Source: Verrucomicrobiia bacterium
Lineage (GTDB): Bacteria; Verrucomicrobiota; Verrucomicrobiia; Limisphaerales; UBA11358
Reading direction: 5' to 3'
Assembly: GCA_036498725.1 (NCBI GenBank)
Contig: DASYEY010000256.1
Location: 5,611 to 69,610, forward strand
Length of the DNA: 64,000 nt
Shown here in pieces: positions 9,697-64,000 of the stretch (the stretch's first letter is position 1; every line of letters begins with the position of its first letter). Under the pieces are notes generated by a model. The model had not been told where the DNA came from, did not search any database, and was given only the letters and a program-made list of their open reading frames with translations. The position numbers and the translations under genes are program-made.

Positions 9697-11241
9697 ATGC
9701 ATCTTGCACGCGGGATGAACAAGGTCCACGATAGCAATAGTCACGTCAACGGTACCAATGGCTCGCCAACCGTGCCGCCGGTTGCCCCCAAGCCTGCCCC
9801 CGCAAAGCTTGCAGATGGTTCAGCCGGCGTATCGCGCGTTAACTTCCAGACCGTCGAAGGCATCAAGCTGTGCGGCATGCTCGCGCATTTTACCCGGCAA
9901 TCCGCCACGTTTGAATTTCATGGACCGGCGACAATTTTGCGTGCGGCTGAAGCCCTCACGGATTTTCAGATTGAAATCTGCGGGCAGACGGCTTATTCCG
10001 GGCGCGCGGTTATTGCAAATTTGCTGGATGGTGGCAGCAACACTTTCTGTGAAGTAACCCTGGATGAAAATCTCTGGGCCGGGAAAATAAATCTTTTAGA
10101 AACCCCGGCCGCAACCGGCGGCAAAGGTCATTTGGAGCTTGGCTTCAAAGAATTTCTTCAAAACTGGCAGAGCCTTTACAAGATCAGTCCTGAATACAAG
10201 CTGGCCTTGGTGGACATGCAGACTTACTTCACCGACCTGAAGCTTTGGTTGAATCAATTGGAAATCAGCATTCAAGCGGTTCCTGAAATTGAACAGCCGG
10301 CGTTGGAGCGTAAAATCATTGCCGAAGTGGGACGGCTGGCCTTTCCCACCTTTGCGGCGCTGTTTGAAAGGTTTGAGCTGGCGGCAAAAGCGGTGGATAA
10401 AAAACACCTGCCGCCCCACCAAGCCCTCGTCAAGCGGATGTTGCACCCGCTGATTCTCTGCTCACCCTTCATGCACCGGATCTATTCTAAGCCGCTGGGT
10501 TATGCTGGTGATTATGAGATGGTCAACATGATCTTGCGTGATCCGCACGAGGGAGATTCACTTTTTGCCAAACTGCTGAATGTGTTCATTTTGGGACAGG
10601 TGCCCGGCGAGGCGCATCGCAACCGCGTCATTTACCTGGTTCACCGCTTGGTCGAAGAGGTGGGCCGCATGGCGCAACAAGGTAAAGTTTGCCGGATTTA
10701 CAATCTTGGTTGCGGGCCGGCCGGTGAAGTTCAGCAATTCCTGAGAGCGCATGACTTGTCGCAGCACGCCCAGTTCACCCTCCTGGATGCCGATGATGAA
10801 ACCTTAAGAAATACGGGCAAGTTGCTGGAAAGCATCAAGTCCAAGCACAACCGGCGGACCCCCCTCAAGCTGGTAAAAAAATCGGTGCATCAATTACTCA
10901 AGCCAAGTGACCGGAATAAATCTGCCGGCGAAAAATATGACTATATTTACTCCGCCGGTCTCTTTGATTATTTAACCGACCAGGTTGGCCGGACGATTAT
11001 TGAACTGACTTACAACCTGCTTGCGCCGGGCGGATTGCTGCTGATAACCAACGTTGATCCCGTGAATCCCATTAAAAACATTATGGATCATATTTACGAC
11101 TGGCCGCTGATCTATCGGGATGGCCGGCAACTTGCCGAGCTGGCCGCCAGATTGCCGGCCGACGCCAGCATCGCCATCAGGGCCGAATACACCAGCGCCA
11201 ACGTTATTTTGGAAGTGCGAAAACCGTCGCTGAACCCATGA
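9697..11241 (+). CDS. Class I SAM-dependent methyltransferase with an extra N-terminal domain (PhcB-like)
   Basis: Motif I is IYNLGCGPAGEV, followed by LLDADDETL, YIYSAGLFDYL and LLAPGGLLLITN. The first roughly 330 aa form a non-catalytic, possibly PilZ-like, N-terminal region. The stop overlaps the next start (ATGA at 11238-11241). Confidence 0.8.
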   Translation: MHLARGMNKVHDSNSHVNGTNGSPTVPPVAPKPAPAKLADGSAGVSRVNFQTVEGIKLCGMLAHFTRQSATFEFHGPATILRAAEALTDFQIEICGQTAYSGRAVIANLLDGGSNTFCEVTLDENLWAGKINLLETPAATGGKGHLELGFKEFLQNWQSLYKISPEYKLALVDMQTYFTDLKLWLNQLEISIQAVPEIEQPALERKIIAEVGRLAFPTFAALFERFELAAKAVDKKHLPPHQALVKRMLHPLILCSPFMHRIYSKPLGYAGDYEMVNMILRDPHEGDSLFAKLLNVFILGQVPGEAHRNRVIYLVHRLVEEVGRMAQQGKVCRIYNLGCGPAGEVQQFLRAHDLSQHAQFTLLDADDETLRNTGKLLESIKSKHNRRTPLKLVKKSVHQLLKPSDRNKSAGEKYDYIYSAGLFDYLTDQVGRTIIELTYNLLAPGGLLLITNVDPVNPIKNIMDHIYDWPLIYRDGRQLAELAARLPADASIAIRAEYTSANVILEVRKPSLNP

Positions 11242-13907
11242 GTGATCTCATTTTTCAACAGGCTTTTGACAAGCAGGAGCGGCACGACCGGATCAGCAAC
11301 TCAAAACTGGCCACGATTCTTTCCATTGTGCTCATGCCCGCCGGCTTGACCTTGGATTTTTTTGTTTACCCGGAACATTTATGGTTGTTTTTCGGCGTGC
11401 GGGTTTTGGCTTCATGCCTGATGGGATTGGTATGGTTATGGTTTTATCTCAATCACGAAAAAAACGACCGCGTCTTTGGCGTGGCGTGGTATATGATTCC
11501 GACGATTGCGATCGCGTGGATGATGTATTATGCCAACGATCCGAATTCCCCCTATTACGCCGGGCTTAATATCGTTTTGCTGGCGGTCGGCCTGTTGTCA
11601 CCGTGGACTTATCGGCAAAATTTAATATCCGCAACGGCGGTGATCGTGATCTATCTGGTGGCTTCCTATTCAATGGCCAGCAAACAGCCATTTGGGGCGG
11701 TTTTTAATAATCTTTATTTCATCACGCTTACCGCCGTCATCGTGGTGGCCGGCAGCCATGCCGCTTATCGCCAGCGTTTCCGTGAATTTTCTTTGCGTTA
11801 TGAACTGGATAAAAACCGCAAATCATTGGAGCAAACCAACCAAAAGCTGGTCGAGTTGGACCGGCTCAAGAGCCGCTTCTTCGCGAATGTCAGCCATGAA
11901 ATGCGCACGCCGTTGACGTTGCTGCTGGCACCGCTGGAAATCCTGGTGAGACGTTACGAAAAAGTGCTCGATAGCAACACCTATGACCTGCTCCAGACGA
12001 TGCATAACAATGGCATGCGGTTGCTTAAACTGATCAACGATTTGCTGGAATTAATCCGGCTTGAATCCGGGCGGATGGAAATTAAAAAGGAACCGCTTTC
12101 CGTCAACGAATTTGTCAATGGCCTCGCCAGCGCCGTTGGCCAGATGGCATTGGAAAAGCGGATCAGCCTGGAAACCCATGTGGATGACGGCATTATCGCG
12201 ATCTCAGCCGACCGGGACAAACTGGAAAAAATCGTGTTGAACCTGCTCTTTAACGCCCTCAAGTTTACAGCGGAAAATGGCCGGGTTTGGTTAAATGCTG
12301 AGAAGAAAGATGGCGATTTTATGCTGATTGTCGGGGATACCGGCGTGGGTATCGCGGAAAAAAGCCTGCCGTTTGTCTTCGACCGATTTTGGCAGGAAGA
12401 CAGTTCTTCCAAGCGAAAATTTCAAGGTGCGGGCATCGGCTTGGCGCTGGTGAAGGAATTGACCGATATGATTGGCGGTGCGGTGACGGTGGAAAGCCAG
12501 TTAGGCAAAGGCACGGTGTTCACCGTCCGGCTGCCGTTCGAACCGGCGGAATTACCGGTGCGCCCGCCACTGAGTGCCGCGGACAAAGCGGCGGACATCG
12601 AACCGCTGCATTCGGAAGAGTGGCTGGTGAATCTTTACCGGCGCGCGGAATTTTTCCCGGCCGCCAAGCGCAAGGCTTCGGAACTCGTGCCGTTTTCCCA
12701 CCGGACGCGGCGGCCGGTGGTATTGGTGGCGGATGACGAGCCGGACATGCGGCGGTTTCTGGTGTCGCAATTGGAGGATGACTACGAAGTGATCGAGGCG
12801 GTGGATGGCAATGACGCGATGGAAAAGGCGCAGGAAACCATTCCCAACGTGATCCTGCTCGATTTGATGATGCCCCACAAAGACGGATTGCAGGTCTGCC
12901 GCGAGTTGCGCGAATATGCGCCAACCGTCGGCATACCGATCATTTTGCTGACGGCCCGCGCGGATGAAGAGGCGAAATTTGATGCCTTGCAGATGGGAGC
13001 CAATGATTTTCTGGCCAAGCCGTTTTCTTCGATCGAATTGCAGGCCCGCATCAAAAACCTGATCGAATCGCATCATTTCCAGCGTAAATTGACGCGGCAA
13101 AACCAGGCATTATCCGAGGCGATTGACCAGATCAAGGAGACGGAGATGCAGTTGGTGCAATCCGAGAAGCTGTCTTCGTTGGGCCGCATGAGCGCGGGGA
13201 TCATCCACGAGATCAATAATCCGTTGAATTTTTCGTTAACGGGGTTGTTTGCTTTGCGCAACAAGGGGAAAAAACTGGCGCCGGAAGACCGCACGGAATA
13301 CGACGCGATCCTCAACGACATTGAGGAGGGACTGAAGCGTGTGCGCAACATCGTCTCCGACCTGCGCACCTTCACGCATCCGGGCGTGGGTGCGGGCGAA
13401 CCGGTCGAGGTGGCGGACGCCGTGGATGCCACACTGCGTTTTCTCGGTGGCGAATGGAAGGGGCGGGTGCAGATCCATCAAGATATTTTGCCCACGCAAA
13501 ATCTTTGGGCGAACCGCAATAAATTGATTCACGTCCTGGTTAATTTAGTGCAGAATGCCATTGACGCGTTGCAGGAAAAAGAGTTTAACGGCGGCGAGCA
13601 GCCGCAGATTTGGATCACTGGGAAACTTAATGGCAATCGAAGCAGTATCATCGTTCGCGATAATGGGCCGGGGATTGAGGGCCGGATTGCGGACAAAATT
13701 TTTGATCCGTTTTTTACGACCAAGGAAGTGGGCAAGGGCATGGGCTTGGGACTGAGCATCTGTTACCGGATTGTGCAGGGGTACGGCGGGAAGATTACGG
13801 TGAAGAGCGAACGCGGGCAGTTCTGTGAATTCACCCTGGATTTTCCGGCCGATGCCGATGCGGCCGTCGAAATGGAAATTGAAAATGGGGAACCTTTACA
13901 ACTATAA
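11238..13907 (+). CDS. Membrane hybrid sensor kinase with two kinase cores flanking a receiver domain
   Basis: There are about 5-6 N-terminal TM helices. Core 1 has H-box FFANVSHEMRTPL and G-boxes GDTGVGI and GAGIGLALVKEL. The receiver has VLVADDE, DLMMPHKDG and LAKPF. Core 2 has H-box AGIIHEINNPLNF plus DNGPGI and GMGLGLSICYRIV. Confidence 0.9.
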   Translation: MSDLIFQQAFDKQERHDRISNSKLATILSIVLMPAGLTLDFFVYPEHLWLFFGVRVLASCLMGLVWLWFYLNHEKNDRVFGVAWYMIPTIAIAWMMYYANDPNSPYYAGLNIVLLAVGLLSPWTYRQNLISATAVIVIYLVASYSMASKQPFGAVFNNLYFITLTAVIVVAGSHAAYRQRFREFSLRYELDKNRKSLEQTNQKLVELDRLKSRFFANVSHEMRTPLTLLLAPLEILVRRYEKVLDSNTYDLLQTMHNNGMRLLKLINDLLELIRLESGRMEIKKEPLSVNEFVNGLASAVGQMALEKRISLETHVDDGIIAISADRDKLEKIVLNLLFNALKFTAENGRVWLNAEKKDGDFMLIVGDTGVGIAEKSLPFVFDRFWQEDSSSKRKFQGAGIGLALVKELTDMIGGAVTVESQLGKGTVFTVRLPFEPAELPVRPPLSAADKAADIEPLHSEEWLVNLYRRAEFFPAAKRKASELVPFSHRTRRPVVLVADDEPDMRRFLVSQLEDDYEVIEAVDGNDAMEKAQETIPNVILLDLMMPHKDGLQVCRELREYAPTVGIPIILLTARADEEAKFDALQMGANDFLAKPFSSIELQARIKNLIESHHFQRKLTRQNQALSEAIDQIKETEMQLVQSEKLSSLGRMSAGIIHEINNPLNFSLTGLFALRNKGKKLAPEDRTEYDAILNDIEEGLKRVRNIVSDLRTFTHPGVGAGEPVEVADAVDATLRFLGGEWKGRVQIHQDILPTQNLWANRNKLIHVLVNLVQNAIDALQEKEFNGGEQPQIWITGKLNGNRSSIIVRDNGPGIEGRIADKIFDPFFTTKEVGKGMGLGLSICYRIVQGYGGKITVKSERGQFCEFTLDFPADADAAVEMEIENGEPLQL

Positions 13908-56260: not shown

Positions 56261-56641
56261 GTGGGCGATGACATCACTGAAAAATATCTGCTCTTGTCCA
56301 ATTCTCATGACGGCAAATCCAGCGTCTCAATCAAATTCACACCAGTCAGGGTTGTTTGTCAGAATACACTGACGCTCGCACTCAATGACGGATCGGCTTG
56401 GCGAGTCTCCCATCATTCCGACATCCATCAGAAGCTAAAGCAAGCGAATCAGATGTTGGGACTGATCCATGAACGGTTTGATGATATGGAGCAGACGTTT
56501 CAGGCCATGTCTCGCGTAAAACTCAATTCTGATCGCTTGGCTCAATATCCCACCAGCCAGCCCGATTTAGTTCGATATGCTGAACTAGGGCTGCAGCTCC
56601 TTTTGGCAAAAGAGATAAATGTGAACTCATGTTATCTGTAA
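56261..56641 (+). pseudogene. Truncated DUF932-family (plasmid/ICE/phage-associated) gene remnant
   Basis: The 126-codon frame opens right after a stop codon. It starts mid-domain with YLLLSNSHDGKSSVSIKFTPVRVVCQNTL, the core DUF932 motif. The N-terminal half is missing and the C-terminus is divergent. The 3' end overlaps the convergent ATPase gene. Confidence 0.6.
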
Positions 56642-58161
56642 GCCTGGTAAAAGGCTTCGGCAACAAATTTGGTGAACTCCTCGGTCTTGTTATCGCTGCG
56701 GGCGATTACCTGGAATGGTTCGAGCTTCGCGATTTCGGACTGCAAATCCTTTGCGGTTTTGTTACTGCACCCGATGATGGATTGGATAGATGCCGGCACC
56801 ACACCTTCGCACTGGAAAATAAATGCGAACTCCAGAAGCTCCTGAAAGTTGAAGAATGACTGCTGGTAGTCATTAGGCGACTGCGACGCAAAAAAGACAA
56901 CGATACCCTTAGAGCGGCCTTCACGGATGATGCGTTGGAGGAAAATATTTTTTTGCGGCAGGTAATTGTGGGCTTCGTCAATCACCAGGACGCAACGAAT
57001 GGTGCGCCGCCCATTTTCCACCGGGCTGTCCGGCAGCGCCGCCATTTCCTTGTAGAGCCGTTCAATCACGAGATACGCCACCAGTTCCTTGAGGACAGGC
57101 ATCTTGTGCAAGTCGATGACCATGGTGCGGTTGGTAAGGCGCTCCAATGGATCGCGCTCGCTGCCATGTTTCCAAAACAGGTTGAACGTCGCGAGGTCCC
57201 GCAGCACTTCGACGAGGGAATCGTCGTTCTTGCCGTCATCGGCGTAGTCAGCCTGGACGATGTCGAAAACATCCTGAAAATCTGGATAGGGGCGGGGCGA
57301 ACCGGCGCGCTTGGCGTAGGCCGCGCGAATCGCTTCGGCCAAAGCGCCTTTCTGGACCACGCCCAGCTTGGAACTGATGGAGGCAAAGCTCTCGGCCTTT
57401 TCGCGGGCGGAAACGGTAATGGTCGTGTCGTCATAGGCCGGCAGCACGAACGGATTGATCGGCAGATTCTGACTGCCGTTGAGCAACGAAAAGGTCTGGG
57501 CCTTGCTGACTTCAACAAAATTTTCATTGGTCCCCACGTCCCCTTTGTAGTCAAACAGGATAAAATTGGTCTGGTGGCCAGATTGGAGACGTATGTCGGC
57601 GAGCAGTTTTAGCAGGAACTGGGTTTTACCGACACCGGGCTTGCCCATGATCGCCAAATGTGAATTGGCATGACGCACCGAGTTGTTGAATTCAATGACG
57701 ATGCTGCCCTTTGTCAGAATCTCGCGACCGATAAAAATATCCAGCCCTTTACCGCGCGCCTCACGGCGGCCTTCAAATTCCACGGTTTCAACCAGTCGGA
57801 CGAGAAGTTTGGCGGAATCCTGGCCACATTCCTTAAACAGCTTTTGCAAATGGACGCACCCATTATCTATATGGTCTTTGATGAATGACCGATTGGAATA
57901 AAAATCGTCTTCGCTGATGTCGGATCGCTGGTGAACCTGGGCGACCAGTGTGCGCATGAAGAGTTCGTCGGACCCAATAAAGGTCGGGCGTTTGATTTCC
58001 ACGCCGGTAAAATCAGAACTCCGGGCAACGTTCGCGCCTTCCGTGGCGAGCGAAAGCGAAAATGCCATGCGTGCCAAGATGAATTTTTCCAACTTGGTCT
58101 CGGCCCGCAGGGCACTCAAGACATCATCGGCCGGTTGTGAGGTAAAAAGTCGATCGGCCAT
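56632..58161 (-). CDS. DndE-like domain fused to a HerA/FtsK-like (DUF87-type) P-loop ATPase
   Basis: The first roughly 125 aa (ILARMAFSLSLATEG...EIKRPTFIGSDELFMRTLV...FIKDHIDNGCVHL) resemble DndE. Walker A is MGKPGVGKTQFLL and Walker B is RCVLVIDEAHNYLP. The start lies 1 nt after the upstream stop. Confidence 0.7.
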   Translation of the reverse strand: MADRLFTSQPADDVLSALRAETKLEKFILARMAFSLSLATEGANVARSSDFTGVEIKRPTFIGSDELFMRTLVAQVHQRSDISEDDFYSNRSFIKDHIDNGCVHLQKLFKECGQDSAKLLVRLVETVEFEGRREARGKGLDIFIGREILTKGSIVIEFNNSVRHANSHLAIMGKPGVGKTQFLLKLLADIRLQSGHQTNFILFDYKGDVGTNENFVEVSKAQTFSLLNGSQNLPINPFVLPAYDDTTITVSAREKAESFASISSKLGVVQKGALAEAIRAAYAKRAGSPRPYPDFQDVFDIVQADYADDGKNDDSLVEVLRDLATFNLFWKHGSERDPLERLTNRTMVIDLHKMPVLKELVAYLVIERLYKEMAALPDSPVENGRRTIRCVLVIDEAHNYLPQKNIFLQRIIREGRSKGIVVFFASQSPNDYQQSFFNFQELLEFAFIFQCEGVVPASIQSIIGCSNKTAKDLQSEIAKLEPFQVIARSDNKTEEFTKFVAEAFYQAYR

Positions 58162-58162
58162 A

Positions 58163-60154
58163 TCATTTCTCCCAAAAATATCCTTCTTTCAAGGTGGTTA
58201 ATTCCTGTCGTTGATCAAAGAGCAAATGGGCCGCGCCGCTTAAATGCGGCTCCAGTTGCTTGAAATAGTTTTTATCAATTTCCATGTCGGTGGAGAGAAT
58301 TACCACCTGATCCGCCGCATTGGGGAAATAGTTATTAATAATGTTGTCCCGGTGCGTGCTGTCGAGGCGTGATAGCGGCGTATCAATGATGATGGGCAGC
58401 TTTAGCTGGCTGGTTTGGGCAAGTCCCCAAAGCAGCGAGACGGCGAAAACCTCTTTTTCACCGGCGGAGAGGCTTGATTTGCGCATCTCATGGCCGCTAC
58501 GGTCGCGGATCGTGATTTCGTATGTTTTGTCATCAATGACCAGGTCTTGAATCAAGCCGCTTTTGCTGGAGAGCAAACGATACATCTCAAAGGTTTTATC
58601 CTGAAGCAAGGCGACCTTGCTCAAGCGGAGGCGCACCGTGAACTGGGTCAGGAGACTGGCAATGGCGTCGCATTCATCGAGGAGCAAGGTTTTTTCCTTG
58701 GAGACATTGTGCTTTTCAAAAAGTTTGTTCACCTCCAGCTCAATCTCGGCAATGCGGCGTTCCAAGGTGAGAACTTCCTCCTCCAAGCCGCGCAACTGCT
58801 CCGTCTTCCGGCCAATCTGCGTGGAATAGCCCTCCATCTCGGTTTGCAACTGCTGGAACAATTCCTTTTCGACCTCGGTGCTGACGCCGAAATGTTGTGT
58901 GCCGACGAGCCGCTTGAGTTCCACGTCCAATTCACGCTTTTCCTCGAGCATATTCATCAGCAGAAATACCTCGCTGGATTCGATTTCATCCATGCGCCCC
59001 AACACTCGCGCCGCGTCACGCTCAGACAAATTGAGAATCTTAGCCTTGGCACCGCCGTGGGTGCCCTCGCGTAGAAGTTTGAAAATGCGCTGCTCCAATT
59101 CCGCCATTTTTTCCGGCGACAATTTTTCCCGGTAGATCGGCTCTGGTTCCTCGACGACTCGCACGAGCTGCTTGGCCAACTCACCGGCGTGCTCATGGAT
59201 GGCTCCCTGCAAGGTGTCTTCGCGCTCTGAATCAATCTGTTTTTTCAGCGGATCAAAAATTTTGCCGGCCAACGCGAAGGGCAAAAACTTCTCGGCCAGC
59301 ATTTTGATTTCATTTTCCAACTGGCCGAGTCGGTTGGAAACTTGGAGTCGCCGCTTTTCATTCTGCCGGGTGGCTTCCTGAGTTTCAGGTTCGGCATGGA
59401 ACGCGGTCTGAAACCGTTTCTTGGCCGCTTCGTTACCGGTTTTTAGTTCTTCCAACTCGGTCGTTTTTTCCTTCTGCTCGGCCTTCTTCTTGGTCAACTT
59501 GCTTTGCTCCCGTTTCAATTCAGTTTTCTTGAAGTCGAGGTCTTCATCGGAAATCTCGACAAAATTCTGCCGCTCTTGCTGCTTGAGATAAATGATGTCG
59601 CTGGACAGGCGCGTGATGGACTGGATTCCTAGAGCGGCCTCCAACGAGGATTTTAACCGCACTTCCGAATGGTCATCCGCCGCGATTTCCTGGATTTTTT
59701 CGCCGTCAAAAAAGAAAAACTGCGTGATGCTGCGCGGGACCGTGGCATTGATGAAATCCTGCCAGATTTCCTTGTTTTGGACGGAAACCCGCTTGCCGTC
59801 CTTCACGACGACCAGTTTTTCCTCCAAATCCTGCGGTCTCGGTTTCTCCACCGCCCCGGCGCTCCAACTGCGTTTGACGATAATTTCCTCGTGGTCGTCG
59901 GTTTCAAAAGTCAATTCAAACGAAACGCTAGCGTTGCCCTTGGCGAGTTCCTTGCGGTTAATGTATCGGAAGATGGCCTCGGGCTTGGCACCATAGAGGC
60001 AAATGCTGATGGCCTCGGTCAACGAGGTTTTGCCCGCGCCATTCATACCGCCGATCAGGAAAATGCTTTTGCCGGAACTGCCGACCGGGAAGCGGATTTC
60101 CACGGGCAACTGGAACGACTTGTAATTATCAATTATGAGCTTGGTAAATTTCAT
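58163..60154 (-). CDS. DndD/SspC-like SMC-type ATPase
   Basis: N-terminus MKFTKLIIDNYKSFQ...GGMNGAGKTSLTEAI, followed by a coiled coil of about 450 aa. The C-terminal LSAGEKEVFAVSLLWGLAQ...LPIIIDTPLSRLDSTHR...YFP...QVVILSTDMEI closely matches the DndD signature and Walker B region as I recall it. The 663-aa length is typical for DndD. Confidence 0.85.
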   Translation of the reverse strand: MKFTKLIIDNYKSFQLPVEIRFPVGSSGKSIFLIGGMNGAGKTSLTEAISICLYGAKPEAIFRYINRKELAKGNASVSFELTFETDDHEEIIVKRSWSAGAVEKPRPQDLEEKLVVVKDGKRVSVQNKEIWQDFINATVPRSITQFFFFDGEKIQEIAADDHSEVRLKSSLEAALGIQSITRLSSDIIYLKQQERQNFVEISDEDLDFKKTELKREQSKLTKKKAEQKEKTTELEELKTGNEAAKKRFQTAFHAEPETQEATRQNEKRRLQVSNRLGQLENEIKMLAEKFLPFALAGKIFDPLKKQIDSEREDTLQGAIHEHAGELAKQLVRVVEEPEPIYREKLSPEKMAELEQRIFKLLREGTHGGAKAKILNLSERDAARVLGRMDEIESSEVFLLMNMLEEKRELDVELKRLVGTQHFGVSTEVEKELFQQLQTEMEGYSTQIGRKTEQLRGLEEEVLTLERRIAEIELEVNKLFEKHNVSKEKTLLLDECDAIASLLTQFTVRLRLSKVALLQDKTFEMYRLLSSKSGLIQDLVIDDKTYEITIRDRSGHEMRKSSLSAGEKEVFAVSLLWGLAQTSQLKLPIIIDTPLSRLDSTHRDNIINNYFPNAADQVVILSTDMEIDKNYFKQLEPHLSGAAHLLFDQRQELTTLKEGYFWEK

Positions 60155-60189: not shown

Positions 60190-60642
60190 TCAATTCCGGT
60201 TGCTGGACGGCCAAGAAAATAAATCCATGGATTTTTCGTCCTCCGCTTTTTTCTTGCGCCGCTTGGCCGGCGGCGGAATGGGCGCGGCGGACGGTTTTGG
60301 TTCGACCACCGCCGGAAGTTGGCTGGCCAAACGGGTCAGCGAATCCCGCAATTGATAGGCGAGCTTGCTACGGAGACGTTCGACTTCCTCTACCTTACAA
60401 ATATCCGAACTCAAATTGATTTTGATTTTGCGGAGGTCATCGGGAATGAGGATGCCCTGTTTCTCCAGCTTGCGAATGGTTTCGCCGATGGCGACCAACT
60501 GGCCGTTGATCTGGACTGGGTTTTTCTCACGGGAAAACTTTTCGACATGGCAGATGATTTCATCCAGTTCAGCCAGCAAGGTCTCGATCCGCTTTTCCAG
60601 CGACTCGAGATGCAGATGCGTTTGGTGGCCGCTTTCCGCCAT
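60190..60642 (-). CDS. Coiled-coil protein, paralog 3 (basic C-terminal tail; hypothetical)
   Basis: It shares the helical N-domain and the motif IRKLEKQGILIPDDLRKIKINL with the two upstream genes. The C-terminus is Pro-rich and then KRRKKK. The start was taken at the ATG at 60642, 2 nt after the upstream stop. Confidence 0.6.
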   Translation of the reverse strand: MAESGHQTHLHLESLEKRIETLLAELDEIICHVEKFSREKNPVQINGQLVAIGETIRKLEKQGILIPDDLRKIKINLSSDICKVEEVERLRSKLAYQLRDSLTRLASQLPAVVEPKPSAAPIPPPAKRRKKKAEDEKSMDLFSWPSSNRN

Positions 60643-60644
60643 AA

Positions 60645-61277
60645 TCAATGATGGTCTCCGTTCAGCTCCCACACGCCGCGAGGTGAGTTACTCTTCAAGA
60701 TGCCCTCTTGCACGAGATTGTAACGCTCCCAGCAGGTGTTATTTTCCCAAACCACCTCGCCGGACGCGCGTGTTTCCAGGTCGCCGGGCAAAAAACGGTT
60801 TTCCAAATGCTCCTCCATCCGCTTCAATGCTTCGTGAATGCTGGCCCGACCGTCGTGCGCTTTCAAAGCTTTGACCAGAAACTCGCGCAATACCTGTTTG
60901 TCGGTCCGGGGGACATTCGAGCGGGGGCGACGGTGCCGGGGTTTGGCGTCATGGTCCTTGGCCGGCAATGTTTTTTGAATTTCCGCCGACAAAGATTCCA
61001 GCTCGCCGCGCAAGGATTCCAACGCCTCGCCGACTTCCTCCTCCAAGCTCAACTCGGTCACCAAGGTGGTTTTCAAATTCCGAAGTTCCGTCGGGACCGA
61101 AATTCTTGACGACTCCAGCCGCTCGATGCTGCGAGCTACCTCGCGAAGCTGTTTGATTTTCTCGGTTGATTCCTCGCTGGGGACCAGGCCTAACAATTGG
61201 CCGGCAATCTCCCGCAATTCCCTGGTCAACACCTCGGCCCGTTCGGCGAGATGACGAGGATTGTGGGTAGCGGCCAT
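60645..61277 (-). CDS. Coiled-coil protein with a C-terminal Mrr_N-like winged helix, paralog 2 (hypothetical)
   Basis: The N-domain motif is IERLESSRISVPTELRNLKTTL. The C-terminal VLREFLVKALKAHDGRASIHEALKRMEEHL...GEVVWENNTCWERYNLVQEGIL...RGVWEL fits the Mrr N-terminal wHTH pattern. Confidence 0.65.
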   Translation of the reverse strand: MAATHNPRHLAERAEVLTRELREIAGQLLGLVPSEESTEKIKQLREVARSIERLESSRISVPTELRNLKTTLVTELSLEEEVGEALESLRGELESLSAEIQKTLPAKDHDAKPRHRRPRSNVPRTDKQVLREFLVKALKAHDGRASIHEALKRMEEHLENRFLPGDLETRASGEVVWENNTCWERYNLVQEGILKSNSPRGVWELNGDHH

Positions 61278-61280
61278 AGA

Positions 61281-61934
61281 TTATTTGGCGCGTGTGGCGG
61301 CAAACCGGGCAGTCAGTTCCCAATAGCCGCCATTGGTTTCATCCTTCACTGTGCCTTCTCGGACCATTACTCGGCGTTGCAGACAGGCATTGCGACGCCA
61401 AATCGGATTGTTGTTGTAATCGTCCAGATCAAGGTCGTCGGAGGTTAATTTGCCTTTCAGCATCTCACCTACTTCGTTGAGAACTGTGGTGGTTTTGGCG
61501 CGGCCATTATGGCTTTTAAGTGATTTAATGATACATTTGCGAAGCACGCTGTGAGCAGTGGTAGCTCCCGAATTGTGGCGTGCCTTGCGGTCGCCGGTTA
61601 CAGAAATCCCGCCCATATGAATCTTTGCCATTATTCTTGCCGTCTCCTGCTCAACCATGTCGAAAATATTTCGTGCCTCTTCAAACTGATGGGTTTGCAA
61701 AAGTAGGTCTGTTTTTAGATTTCGCAATTCATCTGGCACAGGGAGTTTCCTGTTTTCAAAACTTTTGATGGTCTTGGAAATCTCGTGTAACTGATCAACC
61801 TTTAGTGGTGCGTCCTTTGGAGGCCGATAGCGAGCCAGCGCGTCGGCCAAGTCGTCAAACTGGGAAATCAGCGTTTCGGCTTCGACCCGGAGCTTTTGCA
61901 AATCAACCGAATTATCAGAATCGTCTTCAGCCAT
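61281..61934 (-). CDS. Coiled-coil protein with a C-terminal Mrr_N-like winged helix, paralog 1 (hypothetical)
   Basis: The N-domain motif is IKSFENRKLPVPDELRNLKTDL. The C-terminus is VLRKCIIKSLKSHNGRAKTTTVLNEVGEML...NPIWRRNACLQRRVMVREG...GGYWEL. Confidence 0.65.
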   Translation of the reverse strand: MAEDDSDNSVDLQKLRVEAETLISQFDDLADALARYRPPKDAPLKVDQLHEISKTIKSFENRKLPVPDELRNLKTDLLLQTHQFEEARNIFDMVEQETARIMAKIHMGGISVTGDRKARHNSGATTAHSVLRKCIIKSLKSHNGRAKTTTVLNEVGEMLKGKLTSDDLDLDDYNNNPIWRRNACLQRRVMVREGTVKDETNGGYWELTARFAATRAK

Positions 61935-62118
61935 GATGTGGTTCAGGTTTTAGACCACCGGCGACAATTTCCTTCAAGGCCTCGTAGATGCCGTGGCGGC
62001 GATCCTTGAATTCGTATTCTTTAACGGTGTCGAGCAACTTCAACACCTTGTCGTAATTGACCTTGTGCTCGTCACAAAGTTGCTGCAACAGCCGTTTGTC
62101 TTCGACGGAAAGCTTCAT
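61927..62118 (-). CDS. 63-aa helical protein (hypothetical)
   Basis: It has an ATG start 2 nt after the upstream stop. Its 3' end overlaps the next start by 8 nt. The charged helical sequence is MKLSVEDKRLLQQLCDEHKVNYDKVLKLLDTVKEYEF. Confidence 0.5.
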   Translation of the reverse strand: MKLSVEDKRLLQQLCDEHKVNYDKVLKLLDTVKEYEFKDRRHGIYEALKEIVAGGLKPEPHHG

Positions 62119-62120
62119 GA

Positions 62121-63332
62121 TTATCTCCCGGAATGCGTTACGTGATAGATTAGCGGCTCCAGCTCCAAACCCAAGTCTTTTAGATTAGGCTGCTTCATCG
62201 TGAAAACCCGTGGCGATTTGCTCAGGGCGGAGAACACGATGTAGAGGTGATAATTTGCCAACTCGGCCGATTTCTCCAACTCGTTTGCGGAGAGGTAAAA
62301 TCCGTTTTGCAGATTTGGCCCAGTGGTGGCCTTAACCTCAATCGGGCGCTCCGTGCCGTCATCTTCAAACGAAAGAATGTCGTAACCCAAACCGTCCTCG
62401 CTATCGGCTACATGGTCAACCTTTTCTGCCAATTCCGATTTGCCGCCTTGAATGAGGCGCTGTTTCTCCAGGGCCAGCACGATCAACTCGCCACGGTCGC
62501 CGGTGCGCTTTGTTTTTTTTTGCCGGGCCTCGTAATCAATTTTGCCGCGACCGGTTGGCTGGTTCCCAGCGGCGGGAGGTAAAGCTGGCATGTCTCTTAT
62601 GAACGCCGCACCATCAATGGCCGTTCTGAGCATCGGGATGCCGGGAGCCGCACTGCCGGACTTCTTAGGATCAACCGGGTGACCAAACACTTCGTAAAGC
62701 AGGCGCATGTAAAGCGCGGGTGGCTGAGCTTTCAACTTTGGCCAGGTGGCGCGATACTCCATGAGCGCTTGCTGCATGTCCGCTTCACATTCGAACGCGC
62801 CGTCCAAATCTAACGCTGCTATGAAATGCTCCAGATGCTGCCAAGCATATATGGGGGCGAACTTTTCAGGGAAATAAACGAAAAGAATTTTCCCCTTGAA
62901 CATGGGAGACAGGGCGTTACCGGCAATTGCAGCAAAGTCGTTGGTTGCTGCGGCACGAATTAAATCAACAATCGCCTGCTTAATTGAAGCAAAGGCGGCT
63001 GATAGATTGTTTCCCCATTTCTTTGTGAAACGGTATTCTTTGGGCGTATTTTCGCCAAATTCGCCGAAATACACACCAAACTTAGGCGAAAACGCACCGA
63101 CGATTTTCCCGAAAGTGTCCATCTCCCGTTCGAGGCGATAGCAGAAAGAGCGATTGGCTTTACCTTTGCCGATGACGTATTCATCTAGCTCGAGGCTGAG
63201 AATTTTATGGGACGGAAAATCGGCAACGAAGTCCTGACGGGTTTGCTCGGCTTGTTTCCATTCTTCCAGATCGCGCTGCGCGAACATGGGGACGAGCCGG
63301 GCAATTTCGTCCGCCATCGCCAGCCGATTCAT
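62121..63332 (-). CDS. DUF3883-type (PD-(D/E)xK-like) nuclease domain protein with an unassigned N-terminal domain
   Basis: The C-terminal GDRGELIVLALEKQRL...GYDILSFEDDGTERPIEVKATTG...FYLSANELEKS...YHLYIVF matches the DUF3883 pattern. The start was chosen at MNRLAMADEI (ATG 63332), which forms an ATGA overlap with the upstream stop. Confidence 0.75.
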   Translation of the reverse strand: MNRLAMADEIARLVPMFAQRDLEEWKQAEQTRQDFVADFPSHKILSLELDEYVIGKGKANRSFCYRLEREMDTFGKIVGAFSPKFGVYFGEFGENTPKEYRFTKKWGNNLSAAFASIKQAIVDLIRAAATNDFAAIAGNALSPMFKGKILFVYFPEKFAPIYAWQHLEHFIAALDLDGAFECEADMQQALMEYRATWPKLKAQPPALYMRLLYEVFGHPVDPKKSGSAAPGIPMLRTAIDGAAFIRDMPALPPAAGNQPTGRGKIDYEARQKKTKRTGDRGELIVLALEKQRLIQGGKSELAEKVDHVADSEDGLGYDILSFEDDGTERPIEVKATTGPNLQNGFYLSANELEKSAELANYHLYIVFSALSKSPRVFTMKQPNLKDLGLELEPLIYHVTHSGR

Positions 63333-64000
63333 TTGGCGACTGCCTCCTCTATCAGTTGTTCGACGCGGGTTTTGGCTTCTGCGAGGAGCTGCTTTGATTT
63401 GGCCTCGGCAGCGGCACCACGGTCGTAAAGCTTGCGAATTTCTTTCTGCACTGAATCGGGGGCTTCCCAAATTTGAAACTTCCGAATGTCGAAGGGATAC
63501 AACTCGATTTGGCCGGACGAACCACGCTGGTGCATTTCCACCTGCATCTGACCGGCGCGACTGTTCAGGTAAAAGGACGCATACACCGGGTCCAAGGTGG
63601 AGGAACGCAGAATGGTGACGTGATTGTCTGGCAGCGCATTCTCGTTGGCTAGATAGGGCGCAACCCGCCCAAGCGTCCCACGGCCAGTGCCATTCATTAG
63701 GATGTCACCGTAGCGGATTTGTAGGTCTGCCAGTGGACCGGGCATGGCCTGGCGGTTGCCGTCGAGAATCACCTTATTGGGTTGGACGTGTTTGGAATTG
63801 ACCACCGGCAAACCCGAATCACTGTAAAACGGTTGTTTGCCGCGATTACAAAATGTTAAATGACGGGTCAATGGCGCGAGTGTGATTTTCTTTGGCAGCT
63901 TTTGAACGAAGCTCTTGAACTCTGGCAAAAAATGCTCTGAATCCAACCTTCTTGATTTCTCTACTTCACTGAATTGCGCCGTGTAACCAACGGGCCAGTC
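63329..64000 (-). CDS. hsdS: Restriction-modification specificity subunit (HsdS-like, single target-recognition domain), 5' end at or beyond the window edge
   Basis: A Methylase_S-type TRD (VVNSKHV...GDILMNGTGRGTLGRV...DNHVTILR...YLNS..GQ.Q) is followed by a C-terminal conserved helix (EIRKLYDRGAAAEAKSKQLLAEAKTRVEQLIEE). The frame stays open to position 64000 (DWPVGYTAQFSEVEKSRRLDSEHF). Confidence 0.75.
   Translation of the reverse strand, partial: DWPVGYTAQFSEVEKSRRLDSEHFLPEFKSFVQKLPKKITLAPLTRHLTFCNRGKQPFYSDSGLPVVNSKHVQPNKVILDGNRQAMPGPLADLQIRYGDILMNGTGRGTLGRVAPYLANENALPDNHVTILRSSTLDPVYASFYLNSRAGQMQVEMHQRGSSGQIELYPFDIRKFQIWEAPDSVQKEIRKLYDRGAAAEAKSKQLLAEAKTRVEQLIEEAVAK

Follow-up and report, generated by a model that had tools for sequence, protein, structure and literature searches.

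The 64,000-nucleotide stretch of DNA analysed here (the window) comes from a Verrucomicrobiia bacterium (assembly GCA_036498725.1, contig DASYEY010000256.1, positions 5,611 to 69,610) and carries three tandem genes, P1, P2 and P3, whose products have an N-terminal domain in common. We read the three proteins as paralogous accessory subunits, modular DNA readers or adaptors, of a mobile Dnd-derived operon resembling defence or restriction-modification (RM) systems, and we put the probability of this reading at roughly 0.6. Beyond the domain architecture and the gene context, every step of it is one that we infer. The C-terminal heads of the family (Mrr_N, RAMA and DUF4357) are restriction- or methylase-associated, and a methylase and a specificity (S) subunit are usually encoded upstream; a mechanism in which the modification of DNA is reported is therefore the most economical one.

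The three genes lie on the minus strand (Table 1) and are separated by junctions of 3 nt (P1/P2) and 2 nt (P2/P3), the latter counted from the P3 ATG, which is situated 2 nt past the P2 stop. In the mechanical list of open reading frames (ORFs), P3 starts instead at a GTG at 60672, which gives a protein of 160 aa. Pairwise BLASTP with composition adjustment aligned P1 and P2 over 195 aa, that is, over their full length (E = 6e-29, 30% identity), P1 and P3 across ~90 aa (E = 2e-9), and P2 and P3 across ~97 aa (E = 1e-6). An earlier note on this DNA had claimed three tandem paralogs of 217, 210 and roughly 150 aa with 2-3-nt junctions and a common motif, and the ORFs, the junctions and the motif were all recovered, with the three pairs significant far beyond chance. 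Chance or compositional similarity is ruled out by the composition-adjusted E-values, the invariant motif columns and the strict gene context. P1, P2 and P3 are true tandem paralogs with a common N-domain.

The signature motif reads VPDELRNLK in P1, VPTELRNLK in P2 and IPDDLRKIK in P3, with the consensus [VI]Px[DE]LRx[LI]K. In the family alignments, Pro67, Leu70, Arg71, Lys74 and Leu77 (P1 numbering) are invariant, and the Q, L, P, L, R and L of the motif region are at least 90% conserved among 100 family members. The invariant patch of the N-module, Q..I...E......Px[DE]LR..K..L, which includes Q48, E60 and P67-K74, is located at the turn between helix 2 and helix 3. Against the canonical adaptors that occur as single copies in other phyla, P2 is the most similar of the three proteins (~40% identity, E ~ 1e-44), and P1, for which a word-indexed search found only nine close homologs, is ~31% identical. 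By sequence comparison, P2 is the canonical family member and P1 a divergent extra paralog.

We built AlphaFold2 models of P1 and P3 from small family alignments. The P1 model, with an overall predicted local distance difference test (pLDDT) score of 81, contains helices 12-34, 42-61 and 68-108 in the N-domain (pLDDT ~90-96) and a C-terminal winged helix-turn-helix (wHTH); the P3 model contains helices 4-39, 42-61 and 68-107 at pLDDT >90. The N-domains of P1 and P3 are, as modelled, the same three-helix fold. No model in Pfam, NCBIfam, PADLOC or PHROGs covers the N-domain, the matches there being scattered, low-scoring and of the coiled-coil type. A sequence-profile search of the Protein Data Bank (PDB) returned designed coiled coils only (antiparallel, weak, E = 3.4e-5), and a Foldseek search of the PDB with the P3 model gave no meaningful match to the N-domain (best E 0.77). 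On the models and these searches, the N-domain is helical, coiled-coil-like in composition and without a solved relative. The placement of the N-domain outside known families by the earlier note was thus borne out across these databases and solved structures; of its description as a coiled coil, the composition stands, but the domain is best described as a three-helix module and not as a demonstrated inter-subunit coiled coil.

The C-terminal domains of P1 and P2 resemble winged helices. The winged helix of the P1 model compares with solved wHTH domains at template modelling (TM) scores of 0.65-0.79, normalised to target length, with E about 0.02, and its Foldseek matches in the PDB are generic only (cullin WHB, Rok, Z-alpha and MukE; E ~ 0.02). 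P1 and P2 align with each other in BLASTP through the Mrr_N-like region. Mrr_N is the domain with which the methyl-dependent enzyme Mrr binds DNA. A Pfam scan of 100 family representatives assigned Mrr_N to 41 (best E-value 5.7e-11), RAMA to 15, DUF4357 to 13, DUF2924 to 5 and DUF4268 to 2 of their C-terminal regions, and clustering of these regions gave the same domain types plus two types without assignment. By name, according to its Pfam description, RAMA is restriction-enzyme and adenine-methylase associated. The Mrr_N-like winged helices proposed earlier for P1 and P2 agree with a sub-threshold Pfam match in P2, with the winged helix of the P1 model and with the Mrr_N matches of the relatives.

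The N-domain family is much larger than word-indexed searches, which return few relatives, would indicate. An exhaustive search with a hidden Markov model (HMM) of the N-domain, counted in cluster representatives, found 391 members at E ≤ 1e-3 and 83 at E ≤ 1e-10, most of them 200-230 aa long with the domain at the N-terminus. Long matches (838-1079 aa) were considered as "Rosetta stone" fusions and proved spurious, being HAMP, TPR or coiled-coil repeat proteins. In public records, the family members are "hypothetical" or named by the C-domain only; UniProt, for example, calls relatives "Mrr-like N-terminal domain-containing" or "RAMA domain-containing". The JGI automatic names of two clusters (those of L094, 7371-8009, and of P0012), "gamma-glutamylcysteine synthetase" and "regulator of replication initiation timing", look spurious and accompany coiled-coil-like sequence. 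The heads of the family come from the same reader-domain families as Mrr-, RAMA- and DUF4357-type proteins. In contrast to Mrr and the modification-dependent restriction enzymes, the adaptors have no fused nuclease, and the reader is placed C-terminal to a new three-helix module in a separate small subunit beside ATPases.

In the window, the operon runs in the order S subunit, NOV_C nuclease-like protein, Sp-DndD, P1, P2, P3, DndD and DndE-HerA(FtsK). All genes are co-directional and tightly packed, and no convincing minus-strand terminator was found between 62118 and 56632. The markers of operon membership, Sp-DndD, DndD and DndE, all score above the curated cutoffs (Table 1). DndD has the Walker A sequence GGMNGAGKT, read from the sequence, and the ATPase part of DndE-HerA matches Pfam DUF87/HerA (27.6 vs 23.2 bits) and the C-terminus of PADLOC DndH (7e-43). 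The link of the three genes to a DndD-like ATPase, already made in the earlier note, recurs in other genomes: Sp-DndD and DndD were present on 8/8 informative contigs retrieved with the adaptor family as seed, and DndE-HerA was present wherever the contig reached far enough.

For a wider sample, contigs were retrieved with DndE-HerA as seed, one genome per species, which gave 130 confirmed relatives, and their ORFs were annotated with purpose-built HMMs. The best 80 of these 130 loci, which were kept, have DndE-HerA proteins of 65-72% identity and come from Bacillota, Pseudomonadota, Desulfobacterota, Planctomycetota, Acidobacteriota, Bacteroidota, Chloroflexota, Spirochaetota and others. A locus was called complete if Sp-DndD, DndD and DndE-HerA were all present (n = 63). 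At least one adaptor was found in 50/63 complete loci, nearly always directly upstream of DndD, and adaptor copies of 0, 1, 2 and 3 were counted in 13, 37, 11 and 2 loci, respectively. The genes are usually arranged as methylase, S, Sp-DndD, [adaptor], DndD, DndE-HerA, [adaptor]. A methylase and an S subunit lie upstream in the same orientation in 44 complete loci, the methylase being homologous to the HSDR_N_2+N6_Mtase+Eco57I protein of the fetched loci L001, L006 and L013. Loci with several copies mix their heads, as wHTH with RAMA, RAMA with a head type named C2, or wHTH with a tail.

The P3 tail takes the place of a reader head. It is Pro/Ala-rich with a basic patch, as the earlier note had it (a Pro-rich linker and KRRKKK), and is predicted to be disordered (AlphaFold2 pLDDT <50). 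P3 belongs to a subfamily of short proteins without a globular head, which consist after the N-domain of a linker, a K/R-rich patch that is retained among the relatives, and the peptide x[LM][DEN]LF[SGAD][WY]. Leu141 and Phe142 do not vary among 14 P3-type proteins with identities as low as 24%, within an otherwise variable tail, and the peptide occurs in 14/53 short family members vs 0/102 long ones. Its variants are SM[DE]LF, SLDLF, [VI]LDLF, QLDLF and QLNLF. The published consensus for binding to the beta sliding clamp is QL[S/D]LF or QxxLF, with QLDLF as the tightest binder (PMC12309361). Similar to the clamp-binding motifs of polymerases, Hda and MutS, the P3-type pentapeptide lies in a disordered terminal tail, with LF invariant at positions 4-5, D/E/N at position 3 and L/M at position 2. 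There are two differences. Position 1 is Gln in a minority of lineages (2 of about 8, with exact QLDLF, found in Adhaeribacter terreus WP_378017765.1, and exact QLNLF) and Ser in P3 of the window, where the tail reads KSMDLFSW; furthermore, P3-type proteins conserve an aromatic residue (W/Y) after the motif, outside the canonical pattern. The likeness of the tail to a clamp-binding motif is suggestive at the level of sequence.

Taken as parts of one machine, these proteins could work as follows. The constant core of the operon comprises Sp-DndD, the Rad50-like ABC ATPase DndD and a fusion of DndE with a HerA/FtsK translocase, and it is usually situated downstream of a Type IIG/Type I-like N6-adenine methyltransferase, with an HSDR_N_2 nuclease domain, and its S subunit. 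The N-module would be a constant handle for docking or oligomerisation, by which the DndD/DndE-HerA machine is fitted with a variable DNA-contacting head. Through their winged helices, P1 and P2 would report the modification state of the DNA scanned or pumped by the ATPases, and this report would license or block a nuclease, either the HSDR_N_2 domain of the methylase and/or the facultative NOV_C protein. P2 would be the canonical reader and P1 an extra reader of diverged specificity, while P3 would be a head-less partner with a basic disordered tail that pairs with a reader paralog. The x[LM][DEN]LF peptide of P3 may dock onto another protein. The most attractive candidate is the beta sliding clamp, and surveillance would then be targeted to DNA under replication. 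In its specific form, P3-type proteins would be clamp tethers: the tail binds the clamp, the N-module heterodimerises with a methyl-reader paralog on DndD/DndE-HerA, and methylation is inspected where clamps are loaded. We regard this specific form as speculative and rather unlikely.

Several observations weigh against the reading of P1-P3 as reader subunits or against parts of it. Thirteen of the 63 complete loci have no adaptor, and the family is therefore dispensable for the core machine. Readers also occur without a detectable nearby methylase (L010, L019, L047, L080 and L096); hence, a simple model in which the adaptors read the methyl mark of their own operon is incomplete. With regard to the heads, the match of P2 to Pfam Mrr_N (PF14338), with E = 2e-4 and 21.9 bits, falls short of the gathering threshold (29.5 bits); P1 matched no Pfam model directly at E ≤ 0.1, Mrr_N included. 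With regard to the tail, SMDLF of the window's P3 lacks the first-position Gln, and mutation of motif position 1, 4 or 5 weakens or abolishes clamp binding (PMC12309361); the resemblance to clamp-binding motifs is weakened because this Gln is missing in most lineages, including the P3 studied here.

In the earlier note, the three proteins were taken to form a heterotrimer. In the strict form of this explanation, P1, P2 and P3 assemble 1:1:1 through their N-domains into an obligate coiled coil, and the DndD-like protein uses this trimer as its DNA-binding adaptor. The tight tandem coupling with 3- and 2-nt junctions speaks for it, as do the P1-P2-P3 order, which is kept in L001 and L008, the tail-only P3 type, which is never without a reader paralog and adjoins one in 8/8 loci, and the weak match of the N-domain profile to designed antiparallel coiled coils. 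However, three copies are present in only 2/63 complete loci, and the copy-number distribution as a whole speaks against an obligate 1:1:1 complex. The very close operon relatives L006, L007 and L009 have P2 and P3 only, L002-L005 encode a P1-like protein together with a RAMA paralog but no P3, and each N-domain modelled (P1 and P3) folds alone in AlphaFold2 at pLDDT >90. The 1:1:1 heterotrimer as the functional unit is therefore not supported, and we consider its obligate form improbable; given the tandem coupling and the co-occurrence of P3 with readers, some hetero-association among the paralogs is plausible from the gene arrangement.

An equally improbable alternative concerns what the heads would recognise. 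Like Mrr, the readers could detect foreign DNA, hypermodified or methylated and of phage origin, instead of the host mark, so that the cassette would be a Type IV-like modification-dependent restriction system and the neighbouring methylase an independent RM system. The association of Mrr_N and RAMA with methyl-dependent and restriction enzymes would fit this, and so would the five-gene cassettes without a nearby methylase in L010, L019 and L047. On the other side, the methylase and S genes directly upstream in the same orientation in 44/63 loci suggest functional coupling. Finally, P1-P3 are very unlikely to be winged-helix transcription regulators of the operon (like DndB or RM controller proteins) instead of subunits of the machine: although the C-domains of P1 and P2 are winged helices and the genes are small and upstream of large enzymes, the same N-domain is fused to RAMA, DUF4357, DUF4268 or no DNA-binding domain, which is atypical of repressors, up to three copies with different heads occur, some copies lie downstream of DndE-HerA, and the genes are translationally coupled inside the operon and not divergently transcribed.

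The core of the operon (Sp-DndD, DndD and DndE-HerA) is already known from comparative genomics and from Pfam PF20306. DndE-HerA fusions beside DndD were noted as "clade-3" HerA/FtsK proteins by Rakesh, Aravind & Krishnan (Nucleic Acids Research (NAR) 2024; PMC10853773), who cite Krishnan et al., NAR 2020; they propose that DndD and DndE as a pair scan DNA and form a core to which variable partners are recruited, and they class DndD/DndE-HerA systems as a subset of phosphorothioate (PT)-modification systems. The window has exactly the core of these systems: Sp-DndD, a DndD-clade ABC ATPase and DndE-HerA/FtsK. There are differences, as far as the accessible text of PMC10853773 goes: it does not mention an N-domain adaptor family, and N6-adenine methylase and S genes, not DndC, were found at our loci. 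A crude motif test for the P-loop of DndC/PAPS reductase (SGG[KR]DS) gave no match in any frame of the 64-kb window, and in ORFs >200 aa of the 96 fetched loci it gave one match only, unlinked and on the opposite strand. With no DndC-type P-loop in the window and only a 63-aa protein resembling the DndC C-terminus, the operon is not a classical Dnd phosphorothioation locus, and this candidate was rejected.

Compared with DndABCDE and PbeABCD (CxC-ABC/DndE), described in PMC10853773, the operon similarly combines an ABC ATPase and DndE as a scanning core with variable partners and small proteins. However, it has no DndA, DndB, DndC or HKD-SF2 helicase (PbeA), its DndE is fused to HerA/FtsK, its Sp-DndD is only a DndC C-terminal-like fragment, and its adaptor paralogs have no counterpart there. 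In the case of MADS (mad1-8; bioRxiv 10.1101/2023.03.30.534895), the likeness lies in a multi-gene operon with a methylase, an S subunit and a HerA-like ATPase; the HerA domain of the window matches PADLOC mad8 (1e-22) and the S subunit matches MAD5. MADS requires MAD6, MAD7 and MAD8 and, as described, is without DndD, DndE and Sp-DndD (bioRxiv 10.1101/2023.03.30.534895). P1-P3 gave no matches to MADS models, no MADS model was among the DndD matches listed, and the operon genes scanned include no detectable kinase. Membership in MADS was rejected, the two matches (mad8 and MAD5) being shared building blocks. A search of a plasmid collection returned only distant HerA-like matches (≤30% identity) and no annotated relative of the operon.

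The remaining genes of the operon and its flanks are as follows. Sp-DndD matches only ~50 residues at the DndC C-terminus (404-454 of 481 in PADLOC DndC; 395-444 of 447 in TIGR03183), and it has the look of a free-standing remnant of the DndC segment that possibly touches DndD, in a system from which DndC has been lost. The S subunit runs off the window; in the syntenic locus L001, it lies downstream of a 919-aa HSDR_N_2+N6_Mtase+Eco57I protein. The NOV_C gene probably starts with MNRLAMADE at 63332, the Met at which the L001 ortholog also begins. The window, L001, L008 and L009 have this gene, but L002-L007 lack it or retain it in decayed form, with a remnant of 62 aa in L006 (8079-8267) and L007; the gene therefore forms a facultative nuclease module, possibly an independent one, between S and Sp-DndD. 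A truncated DUF932/TIGR03299 fragment abuts the 3' end of the operon with a 10-nt overlap and is probably a mobile-element relic, consistent with a horizontally acquired operon. No tRNA or integration landmark was found within the window.

Table 1. Coordinates of the genes, domains and motifs in the window (positions in nt of the window; aa numbering within each protein)
Feature	Positions	Strand	Description
S subunit, Type I-like, C-terminal part	63329-64000	minus	PADLOC Specificity_I 7.6e-57; frame open to base 64000
NOV_C (DUF3883)/PD-T4-1-like protein	62121-63332	minus	Pfam NOV_C 3.3e-16; PADLOC PD-T4-1 (single-gene defence system) 3.6e-76
Sp-DndD small protein	61927-62118	minus	63 aa; Pfam PF20306, 33 bits vs cutoff 27.2
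P1	61281-61934	minus	ORF, 217 aa
P1 domains			three-helix N-domain, aa 1-108; disordered linker, aa 108-127; winged-helix C-domain, aa 128-207
P1 signature motif	61713-61739	minus	aa 66-74; helix 2/helix 3 turn
P2	60645-61277	minus	ORF, 210 aa
P2 domains			N-domain, then Mrr_N-like winged helix, aa 136-206
P2 signature motif	61071-61097	minus	
P3	60190-60642	minus	ORF, 150 aa counted from ATG at 60642
P3 domains			N-domain, aa 1-107, then disordered tail instead of reader domain
P3 signature motif	60421-60447	minus	
P3 basic patch KRRKKK	60247-60264	minus	aa 127-132; read from sequence
P3 tail motif SMDLF	60217-60231	minus	aa 138-142; candidate short linear docking motif
DndD	58163-60154	minus	TIGR03185, 373 bits vs cutoff 245.85; PADLOC DndD 2.9e-128
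DndE (two-RHH) N-domain fused to HerA/FtsK-type ATPase	56632-58161	minus	509 aa; Pfam DndE (PF08870), 47.7 bits vs 25
DUF932/TIGR03299 "phage/plasmid-like protein" fragment, truncated	56261-56641	plus	126 aa; model positions 58-151 of 227

Some variation was observed among the other loci. In L010 (7198-12180), and also in L019, L047, L080 and L096, Sp-DndD, two adaptors, DndD and DndE-HerA lie among unrelated genes of housekeeping type, and no methylase or nuclease was detectable within about 7-10 kb of such cassettes; the core machine may be able to work without a linked modification enzyme. The adaptor subtype with the C2 head is always situated downstream of DndE-HerA (L019, L023, L026-L028, L073, L074 and L076; about 11550-12230); on every contig that also covers the upstream region, a RAMA or wHTH adaptor is encoded there as well. 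Pfam gave no match for the C2 head in either of two members scanned. DndE-HerA (L017-L096, at about 10001-11524) is 65-72% identical across distant phyla, compared with 30-40% for the neighbouring adaptors, which fits a conserved motor, fast-evolving specificity subunits and rampant horizontal transfer. An 84-aa ORF at the adaptor position of L051 (7815-8069) looks like the remnant of a frame-shifted Mrr_N-type adaptor. In L035 (4086-5126), an inserted gene for a RhuM-family protein (Pfam 1.5e-112) separates the S gene from Sp-DndD; ORFs similar to it in size and sequence occupy the same position in L051 (6562-7608) and L088 (6761-7804), and a same-sized ORF (347 aa) at this position in L033 (1215-2258) is alike by size alone.

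The adaptor N-module and the P3 tail variant are apparently undescribed, as far as we have checked. No description of the N-module was found in the accessible literature, although it may have been named earlier in the ABC-ATPase survey in which these systems were first described (Krishnan et al., NAR 2020; PMC7544218); a literature search on Sp-DndD, and on RAMA with DndD, returned nothing relevant. With 391 representatives, the N-domain family is sizeable, uncatalogued and ready for Pfam. The DndD/DndE-HerA operon itself, which is known by prediction, is widespread, being present in at least 130 species-level genomes of many phyla, and cultured hosts can be nominated: Methylotuvimicrobium buryatense 5G, Paracoccus sulfuroxidans, Nitrosomonas sp. 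Nm51, Adhaeribacter terreus and Aequorivita nionensis. Lysinibacillus sphaericus BKU_1 is a carrier in which the operon naturally has no adaptor. If P3-type proteins were clamp tethers, freshly replicated phage, plasmid or host DNA would be under surveillance, and binding of the tail to DnaN would physically couple a defence system to the replisome via an interchangeable adaptor family. An adaptor with interchangeable heads that read modified DNA would offer a concrete handle on how this machine chooses the DNA on which it acts.

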